Shown in pieces: positions 356 through 63,127 of a DNA stretch of 64,000 nucleotides. This DNA is from Schmidtea polychroa (Eukaryota). Location: contig CM097885.1 in assembly GCA_044892525.1 (NCBI GenBank), positions 187,612,001 to 187,676,000 on the forward strand, in the 5' to 3' direction. A program made the position numbers and the translations under genes. Position 1 is the first letter of the stretch. Every line of letters starts with the position of its first letter. The notes below the pieces were generated by a model. That model worked only from the letters and a program-made list of their open reading frames with translations, had not been told where the DNA came from and did no database searches.

Positions 356-2618
356 GTATTGGATATGGGATATGTGTGATTGCCACTTATACAGCTTGGT
401 ATTACAACACAATTATGGCATGGTCACTTTATTATTTGGTCGAGTCAATACAGGAAAAGCTGCCTTGGACATCGTGCGGGAATCCCTGGAATACAAATAG
501 TTGTATAACGTTAGAAGACAAAATAAATTTTTCCCTTTCCTATCGTCCAAGATATAAAACAGTAATAATTAACAACACGATGCTTAATATCACAGTCAAC
601 GAAACATTCTTTTCCTCAACCGAAGAATATTTTTAGTAAGTATATAATATTACTTATTTTCATATTAATAATCAAAGAAGACAAAGTTTTTATAATAGAA
701 AATCGCCAACTAAGTATATTAAAATATAACTTTGCTATATATTATTTTCATATTCATTATTTATAAAATATTTCATATTATTATCTTTATTGTTAAATTC
801 ACTTGAAAAAAGCAGTGCCGAAAATTCGTAAATATCAAAGACATCGATATATTTACTGATTCNNNNNNNNNNNNNNNNNNNNNNNNNNNNNNNNNNNNNN
901 NNNNNNNNNNNNNNNNNNNNNNNNNNNNNNNNNNNNNNNNNNNNNNNNNNNNNNNNNNNNNNNNNNNNNNNNNNNNNNNNNNNNNNNNNNNNNNNNNNNN
1001 NNNNNNNNNNNNNNNNNNNNNNNNNNNNNNNNNNNNNNNNNNNNNNNNNNNNNNNNNNNNNNNNNNNNNNNNNNNNNNNNNNNNNNNNNNNNNNNNNNNN
1101 NNNNNNNNNNNNNNNNNNTAGAGAAATAATAACTAAATTAAAAGTAAAATACTTTTAATTTAGATGGAACTCTCTTTTAGTAACTGCAATCTTTTTTTCA
1201 ATTGAAATAAACAAATTTTTAAATTTGTATTCTATATTTCGTATTTTTTATAGTAAAAATAACTTTTATATGATAAATAATTGATTTTTCCGTAATTATC
1301 TTTGAATAATTATATGAAAAGCGAATTCAACAGAAAGATAATAAAATAATAAAATTAGAAATAAATATAACATATTTTGAATTATAGCCAAAATTATAGC
1401 AAAGTACATCTATTTTAATTCAAATAATTTAAAGATTCTTGATAAAAAATGATACAAATAAATTTTGATTTCCTTAATTTAGCCGTCGAGTCCTTCATAT
1501 AACGGACGGCATAGACTTCAACAATGTCGGTCAAATTGAAGTCAACGTCGTGCTTGCGTTAATAGTCATATTCACCATTGTATACTTCTCTCTATGGAAA
1601 GGTGTTAAAAGTAGTGGAAAAGTTTGTTTAATTTATTTTTAATTATATATTTTTATTTTATTGGTTTACAGTCAAACTATTAAAATACGTTGATACAATC
1701 TTGGTTCCGAATTCTGTTTTTAGCATTGGATTTTACTATAATTATTGGGATGATTTGAATGATTTCGTATTTCTTTTATTATTACCATCTTTTATTCTTT
1801 TCGTAAATAATCTATTTTAATTTTTAGTCTACTCTGTCTTTCTTTGTTTTCGGATTGTAGTTTGCTTAATATTTCACCTAAAGTTTTGGCAGTGTCAGAT
1901 TTTGTAGTTAATGTAAAACAAAATATTAACTTATAGTCTAAAGATAAATGAAAATAATATATTAAATTATAAATTTTTATTTCTTCAACCCACGTAATAA
2001 TTAATTATTGCTAAGCCTAATAAGCAGTGGTGAGCTATGCATGTATTTTTTAAATATTTTGTTAACTTTTTAAAAATTTTCAAGCCCCTTGTTGTTCTTT
2101 CAACTGTGATTTTGCGCTTCACTTCAAATTAAAATTTCTATTGTTTTAATGGGAAGATTAATAAATATCTGAAACATGTTACTAAAATCGATACCAAAAA
2201 AAAATTTTCTGGACGCTTTTATATTTTACTAAAAAAGCAAATTCAAAAAAAGAATTTTTTTTCTGGGCGAAAAACACCTAATTTTTTTTTGCGAGCCCTT
2301 TGTAGTTTTTGTCACAGCTCACCACTGCTAATAAGACTTTAAATTTAAAAAAAATCTTTGAAATTTTATGATATATATAATAATTTGCCGCTCCCTCCAA
2401 AAGTAAATTTGTATATTGACATCAACAAATGTTGATATAAGTTATATATTGGGAAGATAAATCATACACCAGCCATTTCCCATTAAAATATGAAAGTAAT
2501 TAAAGTATTAATAAGTAGGTGGGTTTATTAGTTTCAACTTTAATAACATAATGATTAAACATTCCTTGAAATTTTTTCCTTAGTCCTCACTTGTACAAGT
2601 TAAAACATGTCATGCATA

Positions 2619-2655
<37 letters not shown>

Positions 2656-5600
2656 AGAATGTATACGTAAATAACGATTATTGTTATNNNNNNNNNNNNN
2701 NNNNNNNNNNNNNNNNNNNNNNNNNNNNNNNNNNNNNNNNNNNNNNNNNNNNNNNNNNNNNNNNNNNNNNNNNNNNNNNNNNNNNNNNNNNNNNNNNNNN
2801 NNNNNNNNNNNNNNNNNNNNNNNNNNNNNNNNNNNNNNNNNNNNNNNNNNGCTCGATTATTTTGTCAGCTTCATTATTGCGGTTTTTGTGATATTAATAA
2901 AGCTTCAATATATTTTTGGGATAGTTATCGTTACTTATTAATCATTTTATATTAAAAACTTATCTTTGGAACAAAAGGAGTCCTTTGCCAATTTATTAGT
3001 TTGAAACTATTTGTAAATTATAAGAATTTTCTAGACAAGTTTTATTATAAATAAATTTAAGTATTGTTATATGTAGGGGTATTAAAGCCAAGCTTATTGT
3101 ATTGTGTGTTTATATTTGTATCAGAATACAACACAATACATTCACACTCCTAACACAAGGTATCTTCTCTTCGTTCCCTTTATGTAGCTAAAGAAATTTT
3201 AAGGACTTTCTAAAATATAACGAATATCTGATACATTATTCTAAATATCGAGTAAAACATATTCTCTTTTTGAAACGATTTTTCAGAACCATTTATATAG
3301 TGATTCGCATTTGTAATTCGTTTTGCCTAAATTCTTCTTGGTTGAAATTAAACAAAATCAGCGTTCTTTTCGTGAAGCTTGATGTCACGATTCCAATATT
3401 TTTTTCAGTGCAATGATAAATAATCATGCAAAAAGGTTGTCCTTCCAGAACTTGGAGCAATAAAGCGTTTTGCAACCTTCAGCTCATTATCTTACAAAAA
3501 ATCGGTCCAGTAAGGTTAACAAATGGCTTCCAAAGCATTAAAAGTTTTTTCTTTTTGTTCTTTCTTAAATTTTTGTTAGAATTGTCTATTTCCAAAATGA
3601 AAATTCTCTTTTTTTTCATATATTCTTTTTATAAAAAAGCATCATCACATTTATTTTACTAATAAATTATTATTTGCAGTTCCGTTACTCTTACATAAAA
3701 GACACAGCAATCTTAACCCAATCTTTTATGAATCTTCTATAATAATAATAGTTTTGTTCATTTTAGCATTTCAGTAAATATTTTTTTATATCCTTGAATT
3801 TCCTTTTCCCTTTTTTCAAGGAAAAACATTTCGACTTTATAAAACAGCCATTTGCAATTATTGTTTTATAAACCTTTTGAGCACAGTTTCAAGAATTATG
3901 TCATGTTCTGTTATCGTTTTACATATAATTTGTCGTGGGTTCATTCATTCCTTCACCAAGAACTGATAGTGAAAATGTGACTCCAAGTCAAATCCCAGAA
4001 TTTGTAAGATCCTCTCTCACTTTTTGTCGGAGGGTTAAAAATTATTTTTATTAATCTTGTTTAAATGAAGTATTTTTTAATTTTAATTTTTCAAATTTTA
4101 TTATATTTAAAATTTAATTATTATATTATTTATTTCAAATTTTAGATTTTAATATTTTTTAATTATCTAAAAAGAAATTCTCGAATAAAAAAATTAATTG
4201 GTCATATATTATATAACAAGTTTTTAGTTGAAAACATCCAAAAGAATAAATCGTAATATATCACATGAAATGTTTAAAAATGTCTTCACTTAAATGAAAA
4301 GCCTATATGATATAATCTCACTGTAAAAGCTTCGAGGATATGGTCTCTTCAAAATGCCGAAATCGGTCAACATATGTTAGATGAGTTCCGATATTTCTAT
4401 TATGAAATAAACATAAATACTTAAAAGACTAAAAATTAATGAGGAAACAGTTAAAACAATTTTCAAAAATGATTAAACTAATTTCCAAGTTGTCAAGGGA
4501 TAAGTTTTGTGGAAAATTAGATACCGAAATCGGAAAATTGTCTGTAATAGTTGTGGAAATGCCTCCGTCAACAGTTGATCTCGAACTAATGGTAATAATA
4601 CAGCCAAATTATTACAGGAATAGAAAATGGATCAAATATGATTAAGGGAAATCTCCTCACTTATGGTATTGCTGATTGTCAATGAATATTTTTAACGAAT
4701 TTTTATTTGGGAATTTAATTTTTTTCACTTTTTCAGGTCATAATTTTAAATTTTCAATGCTAAATTANNNNNNNNNNNNNNNNNNNNNNNNNNNNNNNNN
4801 NNNNNNNNNNNNNNNNNNNNNNNNNNNNNNNNNNNNNNNNNNNNNNNNNNNNNNNNNNNNNNNNNNNNNNNNNNNNNNNNNNNNNNNNNNNNNNNNNNNN
4901 NNNNNNNNNNNNNNNNNNNNNNNNNNNNNNNNNNNNNNNNNNNNNNNNNNNNNNAGGCAGTATGGATTACAGCTACAACACCTTATATAGTATTATTAAT
5001 ACTTTTAGTCAGAGGCGCACTTTTGCCTGGATCTGGTATAGGAATAAAATATTATCTAAAGCCAAATATGACCAAATTATGGGAAAAAACAGTAATTAAT
5101 TAGTTTATTTATTTTATTAATTTATTATCTTTTGATTAAAAGTTATAAAATGAAATAAAATTTTTAATTTCTTTTAAAATTCATTAATTCATATAATTGA
5201 TATTTCTTTCTAAAAATGAATTTTTAAAGATTATATTTTACAAAAGGTAGATGTTAAATACTGACTCTTCCATATTCCTGATTATGGTTTGTTATTGTTT
5301 CAAAAATAATAATAAAGAGCTGGTAGCTGTATAAAAAATGTCATTTTAAAATTTATTATTTTTTAATTATAATGATCTTTAAATCATTCAGAAATGGTTA
5401 AAAGGAAATTTTAAATTTGAAAATTATTGGACATGAATATCCGATTTTTCCCTTGAAAATGTATGTTTGAAAGTTCCTGTGGTATCAGACCCCAAACAAT
5501 TGTCACATGACTTATCCACAGGACTTATCACTCATTCACGCCAAATTAAAAATTATTTGGTTATATGTTCTGATTAAATATTAAACAATAAATAATTAAT

Positions 5601-8600
5601 AAATATACTAAAAAACGCAAATTGTGCGTTTAGCCAATCATAATTAAGATGTCAGATTGCGCCATAAAAATTTCAATTTCAGTAATTTATTTATTGTTGA
5701 AAACCTTTACAAAAAATACCTTTTATTGTTAATTTGTTTATATCTATTTGTAAAAATATTACAATTTTAATCAATATTTATTTGCTTTGAATATATTTTA
5801 TTATTTCAGTAATTTAGATGATATTTTACTACACGAATACTATACTTTACAGTTTCTAAAACAAAGAAAATCAAAACAAATTAAAACTATTAAATTTAGA
5901 AATAATATTGAAAAAGAGATTTGAGATTTTGACCAAGAAGAATATGAAATTTAGGCATCCAAGCGATGAGACACAAAGAATGGGTGTATATTAAAGAAAA
6001 TATTATATTAAAATTGTTAAATTAATAAAAACATGACAGCAAAAAAGCACCTTAATACCTTTATTTTAAATTTTCATTATAAATGCGATCGAAACCCTTC
6101 AGAAAATCCTGACGAAATGTTAAAATCTAGATTTAAAATCAAAACCGAAAAAGCTTTTGGTGAAGGCCAAACAATTTTTCATAGGCGATTAATCAAACGC
6201 ACATTTTTTCATAGTCCCATTTTTGGCGGATATGAGAGTAGTTACTGTATATTGCTTTTATTTTGCACTGTATCATTGTTTCGTGTCGTTGTTATTCAAT
6301 ATCAACATTCAACCCTTTGCAGCTAACTTGTAAATTGAAGAGTTGAAATTATTTTAAAATAAAATTGAATGGAATTTAAATGAAATAAAGATGAGAAAAT
6401 TTGAAGGAATTCTTTAGTAGAAAACGGGTTTTAAAAATGCATTATTAGATATGAATAGTACAGAAATGCGAATTTGTAGAAAATCAATCAATGATTAGAT
6501 TTTTATTTGAAACTGGAAAACGAGTCGGAGAAAAAGTAGATGATTGGGATCAACATTATAATACTGATTTTGTTGGGAAATGCATGGAAGAGTATGAAAA
6601 GCACAAAGTTGTCTAAAACAGAAAATAGCAATTAACTAATTAAGTGAAACAAAATCCCATAGTTGAAACAAGCGAGAAATTAACAAATTATACTTAAATT
6701 GAGGGGCATAATCATGACAACATGATCAATGATATTTGGGAAGCTAAATGTGGAAAACCCAAATGACAATTAATTAACGTTTATTTGTTTCGATTATTAT
6801 TAAAATGAAGACGAGATTAGGCAAAAAAGAAATTTATAAAAGGAAATCAGATCAGTTAGTGGGAAGTTATATAATGATATATGGAAATAAATTATTACAA
6901 GCTGAATGTTATTGAACCTTTTACTCTATTCATTGGTTGTGATAATCAAATTGTATATTTTGACAGATTGTAATAAATTAATTAATTTACGTTGGGAATC
7001 TTATTATTTATATAAATTTAAAGAACACGAGGAGTCAGTGGCCATTGCTTGTAATACGTATTGTGATGTGCACCCGAAAACTTTCGATGCATGAGGTCAA
7101 AAATTATTTAATTTAATGAAAATAACATTAATCCTCAAAATATGTAATGAAATGACATTGAAATAACACAAGATATACTCAACGAGGATTCCCAATAAAA
7201 ATTATCGTGCATAAAATTTCAAACTAAAATGTTTGCATACATACAATGAGGTTGTGAAAAATAACGTAGGTATTTATAACTGGTTTTGCAAGTGCGAGTT
7301 AGTGTCCGTACATTAGTGCATTTAAACAAATTCAAAAATTTTTAATTAAATTATATATTGCCGTTTTTTATCATTTTTAAATGGTGATTTTTTTTATTCA
7401 ATATATTTTTAAAATTTTATAATTTATTTAATTTTTGTAATTTGAAATTCGCATTTTCTCCTTTTTAATTCTTTTGCATTATACTATTATGTCTTTTCTA
7501 ATTTATTTTAATTAATATACTTCCTAAAAGTTTTAAAATATTTAATTTACTTTATTTGTGATTCCTTCTTGTATTTCGTGACTTTTCATTCATTTTCGTT
7601 CCTTTTTGATAATTTAATTACTATTTTTTTTCTATTTTATTTTTATTCTCTGCCAAAATTTTATTTTTACCTTTATTTCTTGTTATTGCTTCTTTCAATT
7701 TTTTTTCTTGTTATTTCCTTTTTGTTATGTTTGTATTATTTTCTTGCTAAACTTGTTGGACATTTTATTATTTTAGTATTATTTTTATGTTATTATCTTC
7801 TCCAAATTGTATTGTTTACTTGGTGTTTACTCGACCTAGTACTATTTTCACAAAACCATCACAATTAGAATTTTATTTTATATAATGCCAGTTTTGTCTC
7901 AACACTATATTCTTGCAAGCAAAAATGAGGGTTATATATCCCCTCACGCTCAAGTTTGAATTGGTTTTTTATTCACTACTGAACCGAAATATTGTAATTT
8001 ATGTTGTTTATAGGTCTGGATAGATGCGGCAGCTCAGATATTTTTCTCCCTTGGACCAGGCTTTGGCGTTCTTTTAGCTCTTTCAAGTTATAGTAAATTT
8101 AGAAATAACTGCTACCAGTAAAGAAATGTTTAAATTGTAAATATAAAAATAAAAAATTATATCTAGAGACGCCTTAATAACAAGTGCCATCAACTGTATA
8201 ACAAGTTTCATTGCAGGATTTGTCGTATTTAGTGTACTTGGCCATATGTGTTGGAGGCTGAACAAGAAAATGGACGAAGTTGCCGATCAACGTATCAAAA
8301 TATTTTACAAATATTGTTATTTTTTTAATTTAGAGGCTGGACTCGTATTCATAGCATATCCTGAAGCAATTGCGTCTTTGACAGGATCTGTCGTTTGGTC
8401 GATATTATTTTTTATTATGTTAATTTCTCTAGGCCTTGACAGTACAGTGAGGAATTTTATTTTTTAATTATGAATGGAATTATGAACCCTTTCGTTGCAG
8501 ATGATTAAGTCATGATATCGAAGTCCCACTATCATACTGACAAATATATCTTTACATAAATAGTTTCGTTCCTATTAGTAAATTCATTTATTTTTTGAAA

Positions 8601-11600
8601 TGCTTCTGCTTTCTTTACAGCTTTTACTTATTTTCATTACAACTAGAGATCACGTTTATTTTTTTGTAAAACAAATTTTTGCCACTCTCTTTACTAAATT
8701 TTAACAGTTATAACACTTGATAAAGCCTCTGTTGATAATTTGTTACATTTTAAAATAAAAATTAATCTATACTATAGATGTGTATTTGTACAGATTTGTT
8801 TCAGTCTCCTTTATATAAAATNNNNNNNNNNNNNNNNNNNNNNNNNNNNNNNNNNNNNNNNNNNNNNNNNNNNNNNNNNNNNNNNNNNNNNNNNNNNNNN
8901 NNNNNNNNNNNNNNNNNNNNNNNNNNNNNNNNNNNNNNNNNNNNNNNNNNNNNNNNNNNNNNNNNNNNNNNNNNNNNNNNNNNNNNNNNNNNNNNNNNNN
9001 NNNNNNNNNNNNNNNNNNNNNNNNNNNNNNNNNNNNNNNNNNNNNNNNNNNNNNNNTTGACCTACAAATTACTACAAATTAAATTAGGTTTATAGATTTG
9101 ACCTACATATTTTATATAAGTAGACTATAGTCGTAATGAAAATGAATGAAATGTTAAAAGTTAGGTTCTTATATATTGTACAACATTATCAAGAACAGTA
9201 TTAGTAAAAATAAGTGAAGAAATATAAATACAATTTTATTATATTTTTATTATTATGAATAATAAATCCATTAATCCAGTGGTTTCCAACCCGGGAGGCG
9301 CCAAAACCTTTGGGTAAAAAATGATTTTCATACTATAATATCTACAAATAAATAAAACTTCATATTGTAACGAAACTGTAAAAATTCAGTAATTAAATAC
9401 TTAATTTTATTTTTATTAAATTTCTATACATACATTTAATTCGTATATAAAAATTATCCGAAGAGGAAGATTTTAAATTTGTCGCCTTAGCAACGATCTG
9501 TTTCGGTAATGCACAAAACGTCCGCTAGTTGCATGAAACAATAACCTCAAATTTATACGTCACTCGTTTCAAAAGTGTCAACTGAAGCGAATTGGCGGGG
9601 TGTGTTATTGTTATATCGTGATTTCTTTCTGAAAATAATCGTTAGTATATTTTCATATTTATATTTGATTATTATTTATTTTAAATTATATCAATAAAAT
9701 ATTTTTAGACAAATGGATAAATTTTTGAGTGGGTACAAGAGAAAAGTCGATAATTATGAAGATAATGATGCTGATACAAGTGGGAATAATATGAGAAAAT
9801 AAGGAGGTAAAACTCCCAAGAAAAGACAATACTGTTCATCATATTTATCGTTAGGATTTACAAGTTTTGTTATAGATTGCTCGGAAAAACCAATGTGTTT
9901 GTTTTGTTTGAAAGTCTTGGCTTCAGATAGTATGAGACCAGTAAAATTAAAACGGCACCATGAAACTCTACACCCTGAATATGTTAACATGCCCATAGAA
10001 TTTTTTCAAAGAAAATTGCACGAGATAAATATTCAAAAAGAAACGTTCAAAAAAATAGTTTCAGTCGCACCAAACGCATTATTGGCTTCGTACCATGTCT
10101 CATATCGAATTGCGAAATGTAAGAAACCACATACAATAGAAGAAACCATAATTTTACCAGGAGCTGTTGATATGGTTCGAATAATGTTCCGCGAATCGTA
10201 TGCAAAACAGTTGCAACAAATTCCGCTAGCTGATAATACAGTTGGGAGAAGAATCAATGATATTTCTGAAGATATCAGCGATCAATTAGTTTCTCGGCTG
10301 CATACTTCGATATTCGCAATTCAAGTAGACGAGGCAACTGATATAATTAAAGATGCCCATTTGATTGTATATGTTCGACATGTTGCGGAAAATGATATAT
10401 TAGAAGATATATTATTTTGCAACCCCATTCCCGGAAAGACCACATCCATTGAAATCTTTAATATAATTGACAGTTTTTTTTGAAGAAAACGACATATCGT
10501 GGAATAATTGCATTGGACTGTGTACTGACGGAGCTCACTCAATGTCCGTACACAAAAAAGCACCACATGCTATCTGGACGCACTGCATGCTTCACAGAGC
10601 AGCTCTAGCGTCAAAAAATATGAGCGAGGAACTGAACAACATTTTCACAAAAGTTATAAAAATTATAAACTACATTAAGAACAGTCCCTTGAGAGCTAGG
10701 CTGTTTGCAAAACTGTGTGTTGATATGGAAGCTAATTATATTTCACTTCTATATTATTGTGAAGTTCGCTGGTTATCTCGAACAAAAGTCATTCAAAGGG
10801 TGTTTGAATTCAAAGAAGCAATAGCAATCTTTCTCGAAGAAAACCATCATGAAGAGGCACATTTGTGGACGAACAATAACTTAATTGTGAAACTTGCCTA
10901 TTTGGTTGAAATTTTTGGAAAATTGAGCGGTTTGAATAAATCAATGCAGGTATCATAAATGCATCCACTTGTTCAAAAAGACAAAGTAAAAGCTTTCATT
11001 AAAACTCTGAAGTTATGGAAATAAATTTACAAAAGAATGAGTTACATATGTTTTCACTTTCAAAAAAATGTCAAATTCCAGGCATTCTTTACCTTTACAT
11101 CAAGATACTTATAACTATACATATAAAAAAAATTGTATTAAAGTTATTATTGTTTAAAATGTGTTAATATTATTATATATATTAAAAAAAAAGATGGGGT
11201 GGCGCCAAGAAAAAAAGTTTTGGGGGGAAGCGCGGTAGCATAAAGGTTGGAAACCGCTGCATTAACCTCAAGTCATTAACACTACTCCATTTTGTTATTT
11301 TATTCTTTGAAATTGAAATCGTTTTAAATAAATGGTTATAAAATTTTATAAAATATAAATAGTTATAACATAATATTATGTTTTCCCCGAAGTATTTTTT
11401 TAAATTTCTGTGTGATGCGCAACGCCAAAATTTTTAACCGCAGCAAAAAGGCTAAATTGCTAATTTCAATTATATAATATATTAATTAACTTTCTCAATT
11501 TAGTTTGGTGGACTTGAAGCCCTGATCACAGGAATATTGGATGAATGGCCCCGACTTAGGAAACGTCGTGAACTTTTTGTGTTGCTTCTGATAATTTATT

Positions 11601-14600
11601 GTTTTATTGGATCTCTAGCAACTACTACTCAAGTAGATTTTTAATTTTATTAATAAATATTACTTGTGAAACTTCTGAAAGGGTGGATTTTTGATATTAA
11701 ATTGGTTGGATAAGAATGGTGCTCCGATTTCTATTCTGTTCATTGTGTTTTGTGAATGTGTCGCCCTTTGTTGGTTTTATGGCAAGGATAATTATTAATG
11801 TTTTATAAATTCTTAATGTTTCTTGTAGGAATTAAAAGATTTTCAGACGATGTTGAAAGCATGCTTGGATTTCAGCCGCCAACATTTTGGAAAATGTGTT
11901 GGACCTATATCAGCCCTGCATTTTTATTGGTAATTATTCATTTCTTATAATTGTTTCACATTGACCACTTTGTTAAAAATGCTGTCCACATATAAAAGTA
12001 TGGAAGCTTCATTTGTAAAAGATGTCATCAATGTCATATATGTTTCAGTTAATATTCATTGAATATGTTTGATACCTATAGCAGAATATTCTTTGATAAT
12101 ATTTACTGGTTAATATATAATTTATTAAATATTTAATTTTTATTTTTTGATCTATTTTTAATTTAAATTTTTTTAATTTACATATTTTCAAACTATAGAT
12201 CAATATTTATTAATGATACTAATAGATGAATGGTGAGAAGGATAAAGGAATTTACTGATTGGACTGCAAATTGCTCACTAGATAATGAATTAGGAAACTA
12301 AAATGTATTAATGATGTCATTTCGCTATAGAATAGTTAAATCGGTTCCGTTATTCAACAGTTATTGAGTTATTATTGCTAACCTCTGAGATGAATAAAAC
12401 TAGAAATTCAAGACCACTTAGCAATTGCTTCTGATTACAATAATTGGTATAAGCGATATAGTTTCTTTTCTTGCTTCAACTTGAAAATACTCGTGATAAC
12501 TTGAATAAAGTTTTTTAAATTGCTTAACCCAGCGCTACTCAACCTTTCTGTTATTGCGACCCAGTTTACCAACGTAAATATTCTCACCCCCCCCATTTTT
12601 GATTTATCGAAAATTATAGTGTCATAATGAAAACGGTCCGATATTCGTACATTTAATTTTATTGGTAAAATGCGACTGTTTGCTATAAATGCACAGTAAT
12701 GTATACGTATTCCTACCCTTTATACCAACGCCTACTAAAACACAGGCCTAACACAAGTAGTGGGAGGTTGGGGTATTGTCCCGTCTGCTAATTCCGAATG
12801 CATATGAGTTTCGGGAGGTTGTCATTGTATGTGTGTGCAGTATGTGAGCAACTAGTGCCGCCTGGCAGTTAGAATCATAAACGTTTGACAGATGTTACCA
12901 CACCACCGCAATACGTGATCGGTCGTCTCACGCTCGCGAATGTGGCTGTGTGGAATGTAACCATCGCTGTGAACGCACGGAACCTCTGCTCACATATTAT
13001 CAGCATATTTCAAAGCATATCGATGTTCCTAGAACATAGAACCCTGTAACTCCAAGCCAGCGATATGTATGATAGAAGAGCGAGACATACGGTAGAATGT
13101 TTATGTCACGTGGTTCGTACCAATACTTAAAAAAATATATTTATCATGCCATTTAATTCGTATCTGAAAATAATAAAGAATAGTTGTAGAATAAAAATAG
13201 AAATATTTAACAATTTTTATTTACAATTAATCCTCGTTGAATAGTAAATAAATAACAATATTTAATTAATTAATAAATTGTAAGATAAACCACGTGTAAA
13301 ACACGCAAATTGTTAACCACGTTTAATTCTTATGATAACAATTTGCGTGTTTTACGTGTTATTTATCATCTTATAATCCCTGTTGGTTTATTATAACATT
13401 TATGAAAAAAGAAAAACTTGCTACCCAAGATATTAATTGAAATGTTCTTTATATTCCTGAATTACCCTAACATACTTTTTTCTATGTTATTTTAATCATC
13501 TTACTTTCTATTCTCATTAATTTCATATTGTTTTCGTTTATTTACAAATTTATTAAAACCTTTTTCAAACTTTTTTCTTCAATAATGTTGATTATTTTAC
13601 AATTAAATTTAAATCTATAAATAGTATTTACCATCACCTATTAGTAGGGTATTGTGTGGACCGGGAACAAAGACATATGACGTCATCGATGACGTCATAT
13701 GTCTTTGTTCCCGGGTCCACACAATACCCTACTCCTATTGTCATCCATTATATAAATTTTATTTTATATTCTTTTGAATTTCACGATTCTTTAACATCTA
13801 TATATTGTAATTTTGTTTTAGTTATTTCCATACTTTTTAAATGTTTCTATCTATTTCTGATCAATTTTTCTTTTATATTTTTTAGAAGCAACAGAGGCAT
13901 CTTTAGAAAATATTATGGACAAATTTTTATGTGAGCATTGGATGATTGTGAAGCATCAACTAGTGCACAGGCTAGGCATGTTCCAAAAACTAAATCAAGA
14001 AAATATTGCGCAGAATACTTAAACTATGGATTTACGAGCACTGAAGTAAAAGAAGAAGAAAGTCCCTTGTGTGTTATTTGCTCAAAAATTTTGGCAGCTG
14101 ACAGTATGAAACCAAATAAACTTAAACGACATTTGGAAACTCTTCATAGTGAATACGAAAACAAATCCCGACAATTTTTTGAAAGTAAATTAAAATCATA
14201 TGAGAAGCAAAAATTAGTTTTTAAAAACACTTTGTCTGTGAATGAACAAGCTTTACTTGCTTCTTACAAAGTTTCGTATCAAATAACCAGATGCAAGAAA
14301 CCTCACACTATTGGTGAAGAGCTAATTTTCCCAGCTGCAATTGAAATTGTAGAAACCATGTTCGGAGAAAATTTTGCAAAAAATTAAAATTTATTCCACT
14401 TTCCAATGATACAGTTGCTCGTCGTATTGGTGACATGGCTGAAGATGTACAGCACCAGCTTTTTACAAAATTGCGTGGAAAATTGTTTTTAATTCAACTT
14501 GATGAAGCAACTGATAACAATAAAGATGCTCATTTGATAACCTATGTACGTTTTGTGATGGTGTATCAGCTGTAGAAGAATTACTTTTTTGCAAACCGTT

Positions 14601-17600
14601 ACAGCAAAGGGCAACATCAACTGCTTTATTTACCATCTTGGATAATTTTATAAACGAGGCAAATATTGAATGGGAAAATTGTGTTGGAATATGCACCGAT
14701 GGTGCTCGTTCAATGTCTGGAAGATTTCAAAGCATGCAAACACTAGTAAAACAAAAATCTTCCACAGAGAGGCGCTGGCGTCGAAAGAAATGAGTTCTGG
14801 TTTAAATATCGTGTTATCTACAGTCGTAACTGTTGTAAATTATATAAAAACGAGACCTTTAAAATCAAGAATGTTTTCTGAACTTTGTATAGATATGGGA
14901 TCAGTACATACAGCATTACTTTTTCATTGCGAAGCTAGATGGTTATCACGTGGGAAGTTTTTGAAACGTGTTTTTGAATTGAGAGAAGAAATCTGTATTT
15001 TTCTGGAAGAAGAAAATCGACAAGAAGCCATGATGTTTCGAGATACTGTATTTATTATGAAATTGGGTTATTTAGTTGATATGTTTGAGAAGTTAAATGT
15101 CTTGAATTTTCAAATTCAAGGAACAAATACATATATTTTGGAAACAAATGATAAAGTCAATGCTTTTTGTAGAAAATTGGATCTGTGGCTTAAAAATTTA
15201 AAAGAAAAGTAATTGGAAATGTTTCCGAATATAAATGAATTTGTAAAGACATACAAAACCGAACCAGTACATATAAACTTGATTTTATTAACTATAAACA
15301 AACATCTAAGCATACTAGCAAAAGATTTAAAAAAATACTTTTTTGCTGAAGAAAAATTTCTAGCAAGTTACGAGTGCGTTAGGGACTCATATCACAATGT
15401 TCCACAAGGTCTCTTGACTTCTGAAGAGGAAACTTTTTATTGATTTTACAACAAACCGTGAATCAAAAGACAATTTAATAAGAAATTGATTTTTGAATTT
15501 TGGGCTGGTTTGGATGACGAGTTTGCGATATTAAAACGAAGACCTTTGCAGATACTTTTACCGTTTTCAACATCTTATCTTTGCGAAACCGGATTTTCTG
15601 CGGTGGTTTCGTTGAAAACGAAATAGAGATCACAGCTAAATATAGAAAAAGAACTTAAGGTATCCATATCTGGTATTACACCTTCATTTCAAAAAATTTG
15701 CAATGAGAAACAGGCTCAAGGAAGTCATTAATTAATAACATAACATATTTAACTGGTATTTGTTTCATACTAATAAACTTAAATAATAAATATAATAAAT
15801 TATTTATTGGGAATATGTAATTATAAACTGTATTCTTATTTTAAATATATATATATATATATATATAAATTTTTTAATTATACAATTTCGTTCAATTATA
15901 CAAAACCTTCAACAAAGTTTTCATTTTGTTTTTAAATATATTCGGGCCCCACAGGTTGAGAATCGCTGGCTTAACCGATCATACAATGTTTTCTCCAATA
16001 AATTCTTAATTCAATTTGTCTTAGTCTCTTCGTTTCGTTTTGATTCTGTTTTCCCCGTTCTGTCTTCTTTTTTGTTTTTAGCTTTAACAGATAATTATTT
16101 TGTTTTTGATTTTTGCTTCTAGCACATTCCCTTGGGTCATCAATAATTTCCTTATTATCTCTGAAATTTGTCGAGATAGACAATTTTATTTGATTTTTCC
16201 TTTTTTTCCGACTTCTCTAGTGATCCCTTCGTTGTCTCAGACAAGCTGTCAAGATTAGACACTTTCATATTTACACTTGTTTTTGTTTTTGTTTTTTGCA
16301 CGATGTCTACGTACTACACAAGTTACTTATACATCTCGTAATTACACAGCAAAATCCTTTAACATTTCTGTTTTAAATTTGAAACTCATTTTTTGCTGAG
16401 TAGAAAGTAATTATAATATCTTGGTGATATTGTTTTAAAGTTATTATGTAAGCAAAGGGAGATGGAGGGATCCAAATTCACTTTTCAAAATAAACATTTT
16501 ATATAAATATGTTTATTTTGTAGTTTTTTAATTTGTTATATTTTTAATAGATAATCTTCCTTACAAATGTGATTTCATATGAAACTGCCCCGATAACCGT
16601 CATGCGAAAAGATTATGAGTTTCCACCTTGGTCAAAGGCACTGGCTTGTCTTGTTGTGTTGTCCTCAATTATTAATATCCCAATTTTTATGATCATCACA
16701 TTCCTCAATACCAAAGGAAATTTTAAAGAAGTAAGTTTTATATATTTTGAAATTTGAAATTGAATTCTCAGTAACAGGATCCCTAGTCTTGACCCTTTAT
16801 GGCCCTCTATTTGTTTAATTACATTTTGTTGGGGTTAATTAAATTTAATTAGAAATAAAATGAATAAATTAAATAATCCCCATACGATTTAATTGATCTC
16901 TATAGTAAAATAATTTTACGTTTTTAATAGACAAATCTGATTCTTTTTGTGAGAATAGATTAAATAATGAAAAGGGAAAAACGAAAATATAACAAAAAAC
17001 AGCTTTCACGCGACAATGTATATAAAAATAAAGCCCATTTTAAGGAGATCTACTGTTACGGGGCACGTCTGCTAGTCAAATAAATAACACTTGATAAAAG
17101 CAAAGTCGAAAATATGTGTTGCATAGAATTAATTTTTGATCTTTAATTTGTTTCAATGAAAGTAATTATCTGTTCCTCGAAAACCTAGAATGCCAACGAT
17201 CATTAGTATATGAGTTGGGAGCGTGATAAATGTTATTCGTAAATCTGTATAAAATATCTAACAAAACAGCTTGTAAATGCGTGTTAAGCATCCAACATAT
17301 TATCTATTATACAAGTAAACTTTTGTTGTTTTAATCATTAAAATTTAATCGAATTTTAAACAAGACTACATTAGGTCTAGGGTAACCACCTTAATTTTAC
17401 AATCACCCGGAGTCTTTCATAGAAACCCGGATAATTTCAATAAAAACGGATAATTTGTTTTCATTAATTTTTTTCTCATTTTATTCAAAATTATAATTGG
17501 ATAAAGAATTTATATATTAAAAAAATTACATATTAAATTTTTACGCATATTTTCGGCTTCTTCTGTTTGATTGATTGAATAAACATTAATTTTAGTCCTG

Positions 17601-24042: not shown

Positions 24043-26199
24043 AAATATGTTAGTAAAAAATCTGTAAAATTTTATCATTTTTTTGTCATATTAGCGCATA
24101 TTGGCGCATTGAAAATAATTGATAACAGATAAACAACTGATCAAAATTATGTTTAATTCACATTTAAATACAATAAGAAATCATTTGTTTCACATAATTT
24201 TACAATTATAAAAATTACAAAAGTTGTACAAAATGTTACTAGTGCGCATGAATGATTTTTAATTGTGTAAAATAAAACTAATTAAAACATTTTCAAAGAA
24301 TTGTTGTGACGGTATTGTGAACATTTAATTTAGGGTCTCAAAATCTTATCATTTATTCCTCATAACAGACTCCTAAATTTGGCAGTAGACGATAGTGTCC
24401 AATCCAAACCACCCCCTTGGAAAATATCTAGGTCGACTCAGAATTTTATGTAGGTCACGAAAACAGGGTGTTTATAAATATATAATGCTTAGTTTCCATG
24501 GAAATGAGCTCCAAAGTCTCTAAATTAAAATGTAGGTGACGCCATAATATAATATAATATAATATAAAAACTTCTATATATTATAATAATCAGTCTTATA
24601 CACCAGTCTTATATTGTAGAATTAAAATCATGTATACTTCCGCACATGACGAGACAGTGATTAACATCAGCATGAAATGTCATATTATAACAGCTTTCAA
24701 ATATTATCAAACATAGATAACCCTATATTATAGAAATAAATTCAAATTCTTCAAAACATGGTGGGATAATGAACAAAAGCTTTAATAAAATATTTAGAAA
24801 TTTTTTTAAAAATATGTAGGTTAACTGAAAGTACTTTAATATGAATGTCACACCACTCTGTTATAGAAATAAATTTTGTATATAAAAAATAATTGAAAAA
24901 TCATTTTTAAAAAATCAATAAAAATACTTTTAATTATACTTTTGATTACACGACTTGATAAAATATCGCACGTATATGATATAAGATATTTACAATATAT
25001 TCCCAACTCAAAAAATTTAAAGTCTAATTTCTTGCTCTCAACTTTAATTTTTTAAATCAACATTTCAATACAAAACATGCGAATGTACATTTATTCAAAA
25101 TATAAAGATTAAAATCATCAGCACACCCGCCCACACACTTGCCGCCACTTCAAAGAGACTGGCACGAAAGTTTGTAAATTTTAACCCCAGTTCCACTAGG
25201 GTCTAGAGGTTTATTTTAAATATTATTAAAATTAATCTTTCTTTTATGTTTAACCAATAATACTATTTTATTAATAATACTTCTCAATAGCAATAATAAA
25301 AATATAACAACATTTCAACAATTATTTATAAATGTAGCAAACAACATTTATGATTGACCTGTTAAATGGTCTTCTTTCTAACAAAGAAACTAACGAGGTG
25401 ATAAATAATCTGCAATTACTTGCTAATTGCTCAGAAAAAATCGTTGAAGATAATCGTATCGATTACAACACTATTTTCAATTTAGAGACAAAATATACTA
25501 CGCTTCTTTATCACACAGGAAGTACGCTGGCTTTCGAAAGGTTTAATGTTGAAGAGAGTATTTAAAATTCGAGAATAAATAATTAAATTTCTTACAAAAC
25601 CAAATTCTGATTTAATACAAGCATTTGAGAAGAGAGAAAAAATTTACTAGGATTGTCCTATTTGTCTGGCATTTTTGAACACTTAAATGAATTGAATTTA
25701 TCCATACAAGGAACTTTTAGCAACATTATCATAGCAAACGAAAAAATATCTTTTAAAGAAAAGCATTTAAAGAAAAACAAAAAGTTTGAATAAGTCGAGT
25801 TGAAAACCATAATCTCAAAATTTTTCCTAGGGTTGATGAAATTATTTTGCAAGAAGACAAATTTATTATCTGTTCAAAAATTAAAAATCATTTGCAAATA
25901 TTAAGCAAATCATTTGATGGTTATTTTTCGACGGGAAAAATTGGTATGGATCAGAGATAGATACAAAATCCATTTCTTTTCAATATTAATGACATTGAGA
26001 ATGAAGATTTACTCAAAGATGATTTCATTGAACTTCAAAGTAGAGCATAGGAAGCTATGCTTTTTGAAAAGCAACTCTTGCAAATTTTTTGTGTACGCAA
26101 CTAGAATCATTCCCAAATCTTGCGAATATAGCATAGGAGGTACTTGTTCCATACGCCACTACCTACCTCTACAAAGCAGGATTTTCAGCTCTAGTAAAT

Positions 26200-27077
26200 T
26201 GGTAAATTATTAGTTTGTCGCGTCTGTGTGCGTTCTCTGTCTACATTTTTATTTGGGTTGTGTGCGCACACAGACGCGTCAAATTGTCAAATTATTAGTT
26301 TATCTCGCGTCTGTGTGCGCTTTTTACTTTGTTGATTTGAATTGTGTGCGCACACAGACGCGAGCAAGAGGTATGTCGCATTTTTATTAAGTTGTTTTTT
26401 GTAATTTTTTAATTTATAGAGTTCGAGGAATCTTTTGTTTGAACTGGTGATTTGTCTGGGTATTTTGAATTTACGGATTTGGATTTAGAATGGATTTTGA
26501 ATTCTAAGTTTTGTTGGGTTAAATGAATTGATTTGAACTCGATTGGAATTTTTTGTGTTCTGGGGTGAAATATGGAAGATAATGAATGTTTGATATGTCG
26601 TATTTCAATGAGCAATATGGCGAAGGTAATATTTGAAAATTGTAAACATGCGTTTTGTATCTGTGGCGCGAAGAGATGTCTTTTCAGCAATGAAAGTTGT
26701 CCATGTGATCGTGGCTCAACAAGATCGTTGCAAATGATTAATGGAAGTTTATCCAAACGATTGGAAATCAACGATTTAATTTCTGCAAATCATGAAATGA
26801 CAGAAGAGGAACTCCAAGAGATGTTTATGAAATTTCCCCAAAGCGATAAAAAGATAAACTTGTTAACTTATGGATATGATATTCTATTCAATCGAGCTCT
26901 TAAAAAGATCAACACAACTCCAATGTTTATTAGCCGAAGTGTTGAACAATTATCCAATCTTTCAAATTCAATCATGGCTCAATCTCAAGTTATTGGACAC
27001 GATAAATGGTTTTGTACAAATAAAGCTTGTGATATGAATTACAATGAAATTCTTCTGATGTGTCTTAGATTTAAACA
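26200..27077 (+). mobile_element. 878-bp TG...CA insertion with 5-bp TSD (solo-LTR-like or integrase-type cassette) carrying a RING ORF
   Basis: TAAAT at 26195-26199 and 27078-27082; element begins TG and ends CA; removing it plus one TSD restores the hAT codons CTA GTA AAT ATT AAA ACT. Confidence 0.82.
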
Positions 27078-27087
27078 TAAATATTAA
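26572..27087 (+). CDS. RING-finger-like protein (171 aa), intronless coding region, element-borne
   Basis: CLIC-x14-CKHAFCIC-x12-CPCDR resembles a C3HC4/CPxDR-type RING with shortened fifth-sixth ligand spacing; a second Cys pair occurs in WFCTNKAC. The stop codon lies in flanking hAT DNA. Confidence 0.7.
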   Translation: MEDNECLICRISMSNMAKVIFENCKHAFCICGAKRCLFSNESCPCDRGSTRSLQMINGSLSKRLEINDLISANHEMTEEELQEMFMKFPQSDKKINLLTYGYDILFNRALKKINTTPMFISRSVEQLSNLSNSIMAQSQVIGHDKWFCTNKACDMNYNEILLMCLRFKHKY

Positions 27088-27759
27088 AACTTAAAATAGA
27101 AATCGTTTAAATGCGATTGATGACATTTACATTGCGCTTTTAAAAATTGAGCCTTGCTTCCGAGAAATTATTAGAAAAAACAGCAAAAAAAATCACATTA
27201 AATTTTGTGTAGCTGTGTGTGTTACTTAAATATATTTTGAATTGTAAGTATTAAATATTAAATATAAATATTAAATAAATAAAGTATTAGAATTCATTTA
27301 AATTTTTGATATGGCGTATTATTTAAACCTGGGATCCTCCGACAAATTTAGGGGTGCTAAATCACTTTATAAAATTTAAAGGGGTGCGGGATTTGAAAAA
27401 GGTTAAGAACCCCTGATTTGCAGTAATATTATTGAGTCTATCATTTTTGGTGATTCTAGTATTCCTTTTTTGGAAATCAATATGGGTTGGAAAATATGAA
27501 CAGGATGAAGTTGTATAAATCACAATAGAAACTCCCATGTTTTTATTTTTTTCAACCGTATGTATAAACAATATAGAAATAAATATGTGCGATGATTTTG
27601 GTAAATTAATAGATTTGCGCAAAATTCAAAATTTTTTTGTGCTACATTTTCGTAAATTAGATGGCTAATTCATGTATCATTTCAATGTATAGCGGTACCC
27701 AAGCTGATGGTTAATTCCCATATTTTATTTGTAAACAATATGTATCCAGTTGGTTGCGG

Positions 27760-28572
27760 ACAATTGGTAGATTTGCACTCAGATTCTTAAACGTATAGGA
27801 ATTTTCGGTATGAAAACTACTAAATATGTGATTATGAATTGTAAAAAGATATTACCATCTCTGAAAATAAATATTTACTTCCAGGAGTCAATATTCACAT
27901 TAGGTTGTAAAGATCTGATTCTGCATTATCACTAATTAGTCTTCCCGGTCAACCAGTATGTCAAGTAGTTCATGCAAAATTACTAGTAAGAAGAGTTCAA
28001 GTTGATCCGTCGGTATTAGTTGAGTCTTAATTCTAAGCATGCAATCTATCCACTAAAAACAAAAGAAATTGTTTTATTTGCAATTATCAAAGGTGCTTCT
28101 TTATTCTATAAGGAACAAATATTTGGAGATAGAATGCCAAACATTAATCTGATAACATTTCAATCTGAAACTCAATATAATGGATCATATACTGCTTCAA
28201 ACTCAATTTTCAAAAACTTTGGTGTTACTTCTTTATCAATTTTGAAAAATGCTGATTATAGGAAACATTCAAGATTTTGATAATGATAATTACTTTCCTA
28301 CATGTGTGCAAAGTATTATGAGAAATATGGTTTATTTGGATAAAAACTTGAATTGTGGTAGAACTCTAGAAGAATTCAAAACCAAATATCCGTTCTTTAC
28401 ATTTGTTTTGGCGCCGGATTTAGATTTGATTCAGAGTCAATTACCTCAAAATGGAAATTTACGATTAGATATAAAGTTTGCATAAGCTATTGCAGAACTT
28501 ATGCATGTTATAATATATGGAGTATTTGAAAAGGTGCAAATCACTGCAAATAGAATGTTGGTTTGAACATAG
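27760..28572 (+). pseudogene. Polinton/Maverick major capsid protein remnant (C-terminal half)
   Basis: KYLLPGVNIHIRL, AKLLVRRVQVDPSV, IYPLKTKEI, YNGSYTASNSIFKNF, FTFVLAPD, GNLRLDIKFA match the Polinton double-jelly-roll MCP pattern as I recall it; stops and frameshifts are present. Confidence 0.75.
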
Positions 28573-28605
28573 TTTGGTTTGAACATAGTTTGATTTGAAC
28601 ATAGT
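28558..28605. repeat. Three tandem copies of a 16-bp unit
   Basis: TTGGTTTGAACATAGT x3 (third copy has one mismatch). Confidence 0.9.
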
Positions 28606-28769
28606 ATGAATGCGGTTGGCAATGTTAAAAAATTGTCATGGAGTAAGATTTTCGCCAGGATGTTATAAAACTATGACCGTGGGCAAAAATTTGATGAAGT
28701 CCTCTGATAAATTTATTTCATTTTTATTTATTGATCAGTTCTATTCAGGTCAATTTGAAATCACTTTTT

Positions 28770-29100
28770 AGGAAACGAGTTTGTTGGAATATATCTATTG
28801 GATAAAATACCATTTTTACCTAATATTCAAGCCATAATCGTCAATACTCATTCATCGCATCTTGGTGGTGAACATTGCATTGGAGTTTATGTAAAACCTG
28901 ACAGGAAACATGTATTTGATCCTATGGGTTCCAATTATCCTGCTTTATTGGTATCAAATTGTAAACAATGGGTACACCTCTTGTATATAATAAAACAAAT
29001 TTTTCAAAATCCAATGACTTAAGCATGTGGTCAATATTGTTTATTATGGTAATAATTAAATTTATTAAAAGGAAAACAATCGACAAATTGTTTAATTTTA
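28770..29100 (+). pseudogene. Adenain-type cysteine protease remnant (Polinton PRO)
   Basis: One frame reads FVGIYLLDKIP..IIVNTHSSHLGGEHCIGVY..FDPMG..FQNPMT*ACGQYCL, retaining the His, Asp, Gln and Cys positions; two in-frame stops. Confidence 0.82.
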
Positions 29101-33051: not shown

Positions 33052-36000
33052 TCAAGTATTTATATCGGGCGACATCTGAATTATAACTTTTCCTTTAATC
33101 CCGCCAGCCTGGAGACATTGGAAGGCTTCTGGAGCATTTTCAAAATTAAATTGAGCATGGACAACTGGAACAATTAGGCCTCGATCGACTAGATTGGATA
33201 TAATTGACAGATTGCTTCCGCTGGCACGAAAGAAACCCCATTGATAAAGAGCACCTCGGCTATTAATAAAATTTTTAATGATTTTCCCAGTTATTTCCAA
33301 TCCTGCAATTGGGACTCCAAAACAAGGAGAATATTTATCAGAATGTTTCAATACCGATTGTGTAATTGTTACATATCGCGATGAGGATCCCGGTCTCAAA
33401 TATGGCGCATTTCTTTCAAAGTCATCTGCAATAGTATCCAATATGACGTCATATGTTTCATTTATTGATGACAAATTATCACTGTGAATCTGGATAATAT
33501 ACAATACCAAATAGAAATTTAACAAGAAAAATGGATAAAAATCGATACATTTAAAAATCCTAATTTTATATTTTTATTGATTATTGTTATAATTTATAAT
33601 TATAATTTTTATTATTATCATTATTATTTATTTATAATATTTCTTATTTTTATTCATTGTTTATATATTATTTATAAAATATTATTATTAATATTATTAT
33701 TATTATAATTAATATTTTTATTTATTGTTTATAATTATATATTATTTATAAAATATTATTACTATTATTATTATCACTATTTATTTATTATTTTTATTTA
33801 TTTTTTATAATTAAATATTATTATTATTATATTAATTCAATTTTATAATAATATAAACAAAATAAATTACTAAAATTCATTAATAGGAAAGATATGAAAT
33901 TACATCGTATTTTAATTCGAATAATACATTAATTATATAAAGAAAATACTAAATTTATTCATCTCCTTACCGCATCTGCCCCTAATTCCATGAGCAAATC
34001 TTCAGATTCCTCCCTGCATGTTACTCCTACATAAGCATCCCACGCTTTCGCCAATTGTAATGCAATAGTTCCGACACCGCCACTACCACCAAGAATAAGA
34101 ACTTTTTTACCAGATGCAGTTCCCGCCTATATTTTTATCATATTTCATTTGCTGTTTTGAAATAACATATAAATACTCAACTGACTCATAAACTCGGGCA
34201 CTAATAATTTTAAAAGATACATGGAATTTTATCAATTATAACGGCATTAATAGGTCTAAAAATCGTCTGTTTGTTTTATTTATTCATTTTTAATTTACTT
34301 ATAGGTGGTACTTTGAGAATCCAGTAATAATTAGCACACTAGAAAAGATAAGTAGAAGGATTTGTACAATTTATAATATTGAAATTGAATTTAGAAATCA
34401 GAACTCAAAGTGCAGTGATGAGTAGAGATGAAAGGAGAATAATGGGAAATAATAATAAGAAACCGAGTTAAAAAGACAAATGACGGTCATCAAAAACAAT
34501 TAGTGGATTTTAATAAACTCTAAACAGAAGTTTAACACATTGACGGACAGTAGAGACAAGTGATATATGACGGCTATATATATATGACGGCTATAGACGC
34601 AAGTGTCCGTCAACGTGTTAAAAAACAAAAGAAAAAGTCTAAATTATAAAAGAGAATAAATTAAAGAAAATGATTAGAGTTTTCAGGGCTGTATAAACCT
34701 CGAATCGAAACTGTTTATACGGCTGACCGGCTTAAGAATTGTCTCTGAAGTCGGTGAAATCACCGATCCCGGATGCAACGAAGAATCCAGCTGACTTTCA
34801 TCGAGATGGGAGTGTCCCTGAGGCAACCGAGGTAATATCAAAATATTGCGAAGTGAAATTACGAGTCGGGAATCAGATTAGAGTAAGAGGAAAATTTGAA
34901 GCAATTTATATCTACTCTGTCGAATTATTCAATCGATAATGTGATGATTGATCACACGTCTACTCACTGATGACTACTGACAGCGACGTTGAATGATCAC
35001 AGGAAGTGTTGAATGATTTCTTTATCTGCACTCAATTTATATGCACTGCAATGATTCACTAGGCATTAAGACCGTACAGATGAGTAGAATATCAATAAAC
35101 GAAAACCTCGAAGTACATAAGTTCAAAGTACAATTTGATACCAGCACGCAAGCAATAAAATCGAATCAGAATTGCAAAGCCAGTGAAAGTGTGAAAAACA
35201 GGAATATCAACAATAATATGCCAAGCTGAAACACAGATATCTATACTGTAGAGAGATTGTTTCGAAATTTCGAATACAAATTCATGCAATTCGACGCCTT
35301 CTGAAAAAAAAATCTCGTTAAATAGAAGAGTTTCAAACAGCGTTGAATTGAATGAATTTGTATTGTAAATTTCGAATCATTCTCGTTATATAGGAGATTT
35401 TCCGAGAGCGTTGAATTGTATGAATTTTATTGTTTCTAATTTTTTATTGATTTTTTTACTTTTGTCAATTTACTATAGTAAATTATCACTATATAGTTTT
35501 TTTTAAATTTCCTTTCCCCGAGGCTACGGGAACGATGATGACCGTAAAAAAAACAAAACCTAATTGAGATATTGTTGAAAACAACAATAACGATAAAAAA
35601 ACAATCTACTACAATGGTCAATAATTTCAAGCGTGGACGAATGAGGGTGCCAAAGGCGCGAAGCCCCTCATGATTAAGGTGTCTGATACTATCAGATTTA
35701 TAGATTAAAATGGTTTAAATTGTTAACATAAATTAATATTAAATGTTGTTATTTTTATGACAAATATAGAAATGAAGATTCCATTAAAATTAAAAAGTTA
35801 AAATTTATTAAAGACTTTCAACTTTCAAGTGAACAGCAGTCAACAGTGACAGTCCTAAGAAGAGAAGGGAATTATAAGCCTAATAATTACTGTTGGGTTT
35901 TTGGTTAATTTAAGTCGGTTCCCTCTGACTCCTCGTGTCCTCTAAATCAAAACAATAACGACCAAACTTATATTGAAATAACAAAATTCACAACCTTTTC

Positions 36001-49929: not shown

Positions 49930-50212
49930 CCCTTTGTCTGTTCACATAGTAAATTTTTGTCTTCACCATAAGTTCACGGTAATAATTTCGTTCAAATTAC
50001 GTGAACCACATGTGATGCACAAAGTAATATTTAAAATTTTTATAAGTCAGACGTTCTGTGCATCACATGTGGTTCACGTAATTTTTACTCGTTTTTAATC
50101 AGCATCAAATTTTGTTAAAGAAAATAAGACAAATTGTGCACCACATATGATACACAAGCGTATCGAGTTAAACGTCTGTTCATCATATGTGGTGCACAGG
50201 ACAGTCAAGGGG
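49930..50212. mobile_element. piggyBac-type MITE (283 bp) with two internal hairpins
   Basis: TTAA|CCCTTTGTCTG ... CAGTCAAGGGG|TTAA; internal inverted repeats AAATTACGTGAACCACATGTGATGCACA and GTGCACCACATATGAT. Confidence 0.8.
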
Positions 50213-61056: not shown

Positions 61057-61560
61057 CTATAATTTTGTCAACATATTATATGCAACGAGATGAGTAATAA
61101 TCTCACATTCCCCTATATCATTAATTGATTCGCTGTTATCATCCAAATGATCATCATCTTCGTCAATAAATCCCTCTTTGATATCTACAAATAACATTTC
61201 ATCATCATCAACATTTGGATAACAATAATAATTATTTTCATCAAACTCCGGCTCTTCTAAATTAAACAGGTCATTTGAATTGAGTTTAGAATTATTTATA
61301 ACTTTATGAAAACAATTCGCAACTGTTTCCGTTGTTACCTCATCCCAAGCTTCAAGAATTGACATTAAAGCATCCTTCAATTTGATTTCTTTTATAAGAT
61401 CAGTATAAATAAAGTTTTGATTATTATCTTGTTCAAAACAAAACTTTCGATTCAATTTTTTTCTGTATAGTCCTTTAAAGGATTTAATTATTCTTTGGTC
61501 AAGTGGCTGAATTTTTGAAGTGCAATTTGATGGGAAGGACAGAAGCTTACTTAAATCATT
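61057..61560 (-). pseudogene. pogo/Tigger transposase 3' fragment (DDE_1)
   Basis: LSFPSNCTSKIQPLDQRIIKSFKGLYRK, AWDEVTTETVANCF, acidic tail. Confidence 0.85.
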
Positions 61561-62945: not shown

Positions 62946-63127
62946 ACACCAATCCCTCGCTTTACGCGTTAGATACGTTCAAAGAAACTAACGCGCAAAT
63001 CGAAACCGCGTAAATCGAGACTTCAAATTCATATAAAAATGATAGATAAGTTCCAGAAAATAAAAATTTGCGTAAATCGAAACTTCGAGTTTATATAAAG
63101 TTCCAGAAACTCGCGTAAAACGAGGCA
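62946..63127. mobile_element. Tigger-like MITE fragment
   Basis: TA|CACCAATCCCTCGCTTTACGCG with inverted partner CGCGTAAAACGAGG near 63113-63127 and internal CGCGTAAA repeats; right end truncated. Confidence 0.5.

Follow-up and report, generated by a model that had tools for sequence, protein, structure and literature searches.

In the window, i.e. the whole 64-kb stretch of DNA analyzed here, an intron of a transporter gene holds a decayed hAT element of the Buster type, and the noncoding 5' part of this hAT carries in turn a palindrome of 91 bp (hereafter the 91-mer; Table 1). On sequence comparison, the host gene encodes an SLC6 transporter for monoamines, in the SNF family and its NET/DAT/SERT group. 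The label of serotonin transporter (SERT) given to it in the original prediction is not established, as the sole fragment tested has its highest score with noradrenaline transporters (73 bits, compared with 62.5 bits for dopamine and serotonin transporters alike). The nesting of the palindrome in a hAT copy is borne out, and this hAT also contains a weak match to the Spin-doc zinc finger (E 8e-4). A second Buster-type hAT, with a target site duplication (TSD) matching at 7/8 positions, lies in an upstream intron of the same gene (9277-11259). Elsewhere in the window are a Helitron-like fragment (54960-56137, PF14214) and DDE fragments of the pogo/Tc5 type (61057-63907, PF03184 and PF03221).

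Table 1. Location of the features discussed, in positions of the window
Feature	Position	Strand	Evidence or remark
Intron of the monoamine SLC6 transporter gene, 4.6 kb	11930..16550	+	Holds the hAT; flanking exons in frame
Decayed Buster-type hAT, 8-bp TSD GCTTAACC	12530..15968	+	Host of the 91-mer
TSD, left copy, 6 bp	13637..13642	+	Empty-site joint 13636->13734
Left terminus, outer 35 bp, 5'-AGTAGG end	13643..13677	+	Lacks one base of the right arm, at ~13660
Subterminal unit, 18 bp, ending in the first TGACGTCA	13668..13685	+	Second copy after 13697 in longer members
Palindrome P, 20 bp, putative junction of two ends	13678..13697	.	Self-complementarity, fold, loose ends
Right terminus, outer 36 bp, ..CCTACT-3' end	13698..13733	-	Contigs leaving at 13733
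TSD, right copy, 6 bp	13734..13739	+	Empty-site joint
Broken Polinton relic	27474..29040	+	Two conserved upstream genes, double jelly-roll capsid gene (3' part only), protease

The self-complementarity over the full length, with one extra G, that had been read from this DNA is exact: the element (13643-13733) aligns with its own reverse complement except for one indel between the arms, where a CCCGGG run is one G longer in the right arm. Its inner 54 bp (13661-13714) form a perfect loop-less palindrome, and the runner-up in the 64-kb window, at loops of 0-8, has a perfect arm of only 14 bp. Perfect palindromes with arms of 27 bp are expected by chance ~5e-10 times per window. Folded as DNA, the 91-mer reaches -51.4 kcal/mol (z -15.2), a value matched by 0 of 200 shuffles. 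The perfect CCTATT repeats said to flank it are present on both sides, and a 6-bp direct repeat of this kind has a chance probability of ~7e-4. Within arms of 45 and 46 bp, P starts 35 bp inside the tip and is itself a perfect palindrome; it contains both TGACGTCA motifs of the element (at 13678 and 13690), i.e. 2 of the 3 copies in the window, and when folded alone it forms an 8-bp stem with a 4-nt loop (-7.2 kcal/mol). The 91-mer has no room for coding sequence, and genes for pPolB, rve integrase, ATPase, protease, and capsid are absent from it.

The window contains four further short palindromes (13284-13367, 35253-35384, 49994-50084, and 50135-50198), which are 75-80% symmetric and have no sequence in common with the arm. 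The first is an imperfect 84-bp palindrome located 270 bp to the left of the 91-mer; contigs from other hAT copies extend over it, so it is part of the hAT family and not a second insertion. The second belongs to a MITE-like stretch (35253-35433) made of an imperfect 132-bp palindrome and an internal repeat. The last two are imperfect neighbors with a common core of the CACAT(A/G)TG type, unrelated to the arm.

A search of public runs returned 22, all of them contigs. Six runs from two studies of organism A match 52-63% of words, and the 16 runs of organisms B and C match 15-17%. Four of the 22 were aligned to 13100-14300, namely X19 and X1 (organism A), X8 (B), and X12 (C). The best-matching runs may include the source sample; nonetheless, the empty site is found in three organisms. 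Specifically, each of the 4 runs has one contig in which another hAT copy skips exactly 97 bases, and the letters that fit either side of this skip number 6 in X19, X1, and X12, and 4 in X8. It follows from the 97-base skip that the host hAT originally carried one CCTATT, to which 91 bp and a 6-bp duplication were added. The 91-mer is thus a true transposon insertion with a 6-bp TSD, measured at one site, in agreement with the duplication originally proposed. No contig bridging flank and arm at the filled site is among the pieces listed for the 4 runs, so the filled allele is known from the window alone. The contigs of the three organisms cover the hAT over 13100-14300 with few differences, which suggests either that A, B, and C are close relatives or that the hAT was transferred horizontally. 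Organisms B and C also have a hAT copy without 13281-13830 (a 550-bp skip).

Analysis of contig depth reveals that the arm is shared by a very abundant family. Summed depth over 13674-13714 reaches 1,025,015 in X19 and 202,949 in X1, compared with ~2,000-8,000 and 130-520, respectively, for the hAT flanks, a contrast of several hundredfold in organism A; these depths are sums over overlapping contigs and do not represent copy numbers. In X8 and X12 the same stretch has a depth of 0, which in contig data does not prove absence. An estimate of ~2,900-6,700 ends, derived from the X1 depth, was rejected as a count and retained only as "very abundant".

Among the contigs listed, 42 in X19 and 50 in X1 part from the element at 13733 and have dissimilar flanks (agreement 0.44 and 0.42, respectively), and this divergence fixes the end of the element at CT-3' and indicates many insertion sites. 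The terminal five letters are doubled behind 13734 in 15 (X19) and 18 (X1) of the contigs listed. Terminal reiteration of this sort serves in sliding or jumping back (PMC2175359, in excerpt), and we count the doubled five-letter tip in favor of a Polinton-type family. A subfamily of 16 listed contigs in X1 differs just inside the end and keeps the last bases. In single contigs of X19 and X1 (13733->13661), the element end is followed by 11-15 other letters and then by the arm again, hinting at nested or tandem copies.

Inside the element, loose ends cluster at the borders of P. Among the contigs listed, they occur behind 13697 in 11 (X19) and 7 (X1), behind 13696 in 5 (X19), before 13678 in 36 (X19) and 19 (X1), and before 13680 in 25 (X19) and 38 (X1), the last with a median of 115 and 67 further letters, respectively. 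Contigs that read through P continue with a second copy of the 18-bp subterminal unit and not with the mirrored arm. For example, 17 of 18 letters of the second unit match in an X19 contig when compared by eye, and a joint in X1 that jumps back from 13695 to 13669 is consistent with such a unit. As such, longer members carry P natively within their end, the 91-mer consists of two ends joined inside P, and the arm forms the terminus of a longer family with very high abundance in this species. The "two fused termini" of the original prediction thus hold. Since the 91-mer mirrors itself, one set of ends, seen on either arm, may account for the loose ends at both 13678 and 13697, so that P at both ends of a long copy is an assumption. 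The contigs do not separate the 91-bp form from longer members and give neither the length of the latter nor the proportion of loop-less copies.

Given these ends, we consider it likely that a Polinton/Maverick-type family gave rise to the 91-mer as a derivative without genes, with two ends joined at P. This judgment covers the reading as a whole: the insertion, its 6-bp TSD, the exact ends, the abundant family, and the native position of P are observed, and we infer the Polinton identity, the integrating enzyme, and the route. The AG..CT ends together with the 6-bp TSD suggest a Polinton. In excerpts of PMC8097293, vertebrate Mavericks have 6-bp TSDs, terminal inverted repeats (TIRs) of 46-1,447 bp, and ends of the (AGT)2, (AG)3, or (AC)3A type. 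The 91-mer shares with Polintons the 6-bp TSD (at one site), the 5'-AG..CT-3' termini, and the TIR length. The Polinton-type ends that had been claimed therefore stand for AG..CT and the TSD and not for the tip motif: AGTAGG matches (AGT)2 at 5 of 6 positions, exact (AGT)2 or (AG)3 is not found, and the published motifs are from vertebrates. Because it lacks Polinton genes, the 91-mer is not an autonomous Polinton.

Decayed Polinton genes reported 14 kb away are indeed present, in the form of a capsid/protease relic damaged by stops, frame shifts, and the loss of the 5' part of the capsid gene. Three pieces of the relic capsid show 76-83% identity to residues 168-406 of P0001, whose model (pLDDT 85) matches the capsids of iridovirus, PBCV-1, and mavirus in a fold search (best E 8e-17), and which in this prediction is folded as a double jelly-roll capsid. 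Capsids of the P0001 type are not named by Pfam and have 0 matches among PDB sequences; the fold search alone succeeded. Integrase, polymerase, and ATPase matches are not found in the window. Upstream of the relic, two tandem GC-rich units (26196-27087), each with inverted arms, are possibly Polinton accessory DNA, and a 172-codon open frame that follows them has a weak RING-finger match (E 0.003).

Capsid searches of metagenomes yielded 69 loci from 266 candidates, and those of viral contigs gave no confirmed relative among 9, 39, and 10 candidate stretches. Two related contigs (L001 and L019) carry an rve integrase, an A32 ATPase, and a long polymerase-like ORF. The latter ORFs match 1 of 5 (L001) and 2 of 5 (L019) motif patterns and have no Pfam polymerase match, only an endonuclease VII stretch. 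Judged by their genes, Polintons are shown to be present in this genome, with relatives found beside an rve integrase, an A32 ATPase, and a polymerase-like ORF. This gives the proposed Polinton origin a neighbor with Polinton genes; the arm is not tied to any gene-bearing Polinton. Specifically, no copy of it occurs near the relic or elsewhere in the 64-kb window, its exact pattern has 0 matches in viral, metagenome, and prokaryote-genome contigs, and its best local score against the 69 capsid-bearing loci, which are from other samples, is 34, compared with 28-34 for 30 shuffles, the matches being 11-12 bp long. A paired TIR comparable with the arm is likewise not visible in the contigs of the 69 loci. 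Two of these loci have features of their own: L015 has an intergenic palindrome around TGACGTCA (~1351-1375) that loosely resembles the subterminal unit and is not significant compared with shuffles, and L058, with a distant capsid gene (27%), has inverted short repeat units near a contig end (~90-220) in a foldback-like layout.

The missing direct link between arm and Polinton genes, in the window as in the 69 loci, leaves room for another cut-and-paste superfamily with a 6-bp TSD (hAT6, IS3EU/GingerRoot, MULE/foldback, or an unnamed one) that formed the same junction at P, which we regard as unlikely, if worth serious attention. TSDs of 6 bp are also made by hAT6 (PMC12730594, in excerpt) and IS3EU/GingerRoot (PMC10045372, in excerpt), those of MuDR/IS256 span 4-10 bp in the same excerpts of PMC10045372, and very high abundance with internally repetitive ends is typical of MITE or foldback elements, e.g. 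Galileo (PMC3573991, in excerpt). However, the symmetry of the 91-mer, the skip of 97 bp, and the loose ends found at 13733 fix its ends as AG..CT. By contrast, IS3EU/GingerRoot elements end in TA..TA or TG..CA according to passages of PMC10045372, and in TAYGG..CCRTA according to those of PMC12730594. Anole hAT families start with YARNG in the part of PMC3014272 that describes them, and the arm does not fit this start.

Contigs as the only data in 22 of 22 runs, the numerous longer members that bear P, and the lack of a bridging piece among those listed would all be compatible with an assembly artefact, i.e. a long element collapsed by an assembler that joined its two ends at P. We nevertheless find this quite improbable: the shared stretch of only 20 bp would fall short of the words or overlaps that assemblers commonly use, a mirrored copy would not show the single indel that separates the arms, and the window lies on a piece of >187 Mb, which suggests a long-read assembly.

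A host function, either as an RNA hairpin (mirtron- or miRNA-like) or as a CRE enhancer that acts on the transporter gene and is under selection, would suit the strong hairpin, the two TGACGTCA motifs, and the intronic position. It is very improbable, because 11 of 11 Rfam matches lie far below the gathering scores (the best with 34.6 of 73 bits), other hAT copies lack the 91-mer, and the end of the family itself includes the motifs. The CRE sites noted in a SERT intron are therefore real as two TGACGTCA in the core, and they belong to the family's end, in a host gene that is an SLC6 member of the NET/DAT/SERT group; these CRE-like sites are family cargo, and the data show no link to the transporter gene. 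Finally, a TA-specific Tc1/mariner MITE that starts with GGGTATT and is flanked by CCTATT by chance is refuted by the empty site and does not overturn the original prediction that had raised it: TA does stand on either side of the inner 83 bp, but this frame predicts a skip of 85 bp and a TA target duplication in place of the 97 bases seen in 4 of 4 runs, and family conservation reaches 13733, four bases past the proposed end.

How could a Polinton-type family give rise to the 91-mer? An rve-type integrase would have inserted the 91-mer, or a longer parent, into the hAT and duplicated 6 bp. With P borne by the end of the family, the order of tip, arm, P, arm, and tip would point to a junction made inside P, for which we propose two routes. 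In the first (route A), an in-place deletion between two P copies, a longer copy would have resided at this site until slippage or microhomology repair between the P copies dropped its interior. A palindrome inside a TIR is a direct repeat across the element, so such a deletion keeps the ends and the TSD; route A requires P at both ends of the long copy, and we hold it tentatively, well short of an even chance.

In the second (route B), a snap-back at P during replication would have preceded integration. As P forms an 8-bp stem with a 4-nt loop, a new strand can fold back once tip, arm, and P have been made; in this scenario the protein-primed strand would then copy itself, and the product, a tiny palindrome with two identical ends, would be integrated by helper enzymes. 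Protein-primed replication of phi29 is known to yield short palindromic DNAs as a by-product (PMC2175359, in excerpt), and in yeast mutants, inverted repeats of 5-9 bp with spacers of 3-12 bp drive palindromic duplication (PMC7999016, in excerpt). We give route B about the same weight as route A, or slightly more, still short of an even chance, and the data do not distinguish between the two origins offered in the original prediction, a minimal nonautonomous derivative and the scar of a TIR collapse. Going further, the 91-mer could be an integrated defective mini-replicon and not a scar, with helpers that copy a palindrome of 91-92 bp and insert it at many sites, a proposal that we consider somewhat doubtful. 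Here, the snap-back of the Polinton polymerase would take place at a hairpin that the element carries within its own end.

Replication and integration of Polintons are known largely from a sequence-based model with a racket-shaped intermediate (PMC4196379), and two ends that meet without a loop, inside a clean 6-bp TSD, would offer a natural way to read out that model. Should 91-mers be numerous, each with a TSD of its own and without a longer allele, then it was in this form that they were integrated; they would bound the DNA needed for integration and represent defective palindromic replicons in a virus-like element of animals. If they are scars, they would be the TIR counterpart of solo LTRs, and their counts would serve to date and measure Polinton insertions that have since been lost. 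In both cases, the family carries pairs of TGACGTCA motifs across the genome. The mini-replicon, if true, would be the smallest Polinton-type mobile unit, with a cis requirement of at most 45 bp per end, and the lowest step in a series of foldback satellites without genes that this genome contains. The 91-mer may thus mark the smallest piece that such elements can insert; the present weight of this is moderate, given a single intronic copy and an inferred parent.

Nonautonomous Polinton families are present in Repbase. Other examples include Tlr1, described as "non-autonomous polintons" in excerpts of PMC5499653, and polB-less polintons (bioRxiv 10.1101/2025.02.07.637071). Like the 91-mer, nonautonomous Polintons keep their TIRs and rely on helper enzymes; unlike it, those described are kilobases long and protein-coding, and none is a loop-less pair of ends. 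We find no description of a miniature or loop-less Polinton in the full-text literature, a search whose scope excludes Repbase and most subscription papers.

Outside Polintons, the geometry of route A has a counterpart in Tn10. Foster et al. in 1981 reportedly described its nearly precise excision, a deletion between symmetric sequence present in both inverted ends. The Tn10 remnant is a small palindrome of ~50 bp between intact target duplications of 9 bp. It is similar to the 91-mer in this geometry and differs in coming from a bacterial composite transposon. For route B, Esteban et al. in 1997 are said to have explained palindromic by-products of phi29 by template switching. These by-products are also inverted duplications of one end formed under protein priming, with the geometry of route B; phi29, however, is a phage without integration, whereas the 91-mer is fixed in a chromosome with a TSD. 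The two-TIR and solo-TIR copies of Galileo are similar in being gene-less, with internally repetitive TIRs, but Galileo falls within the P superfamily, has TIRs of 300-1,200 bp, and retains a short middle in its two-TIR copies (PMC3573991, in excerpt).

Set against Polinton/Maverick elements themselves, as far as excerpts of PMC8097293 describe them, the 91-mer is similar in its 6-bp TSD, AG..CT ends, and AGT start, and its arm of 45-46 bp sits at the lower bound of the Maverick TIR range. It differs in being tiny compared with elements of 12.7-24.6 kb, in having neither genes nor spacer, and in its AGTAGG end. Overall, the 91-mer probably works like the end-pair of a nonautonomous Polinton.
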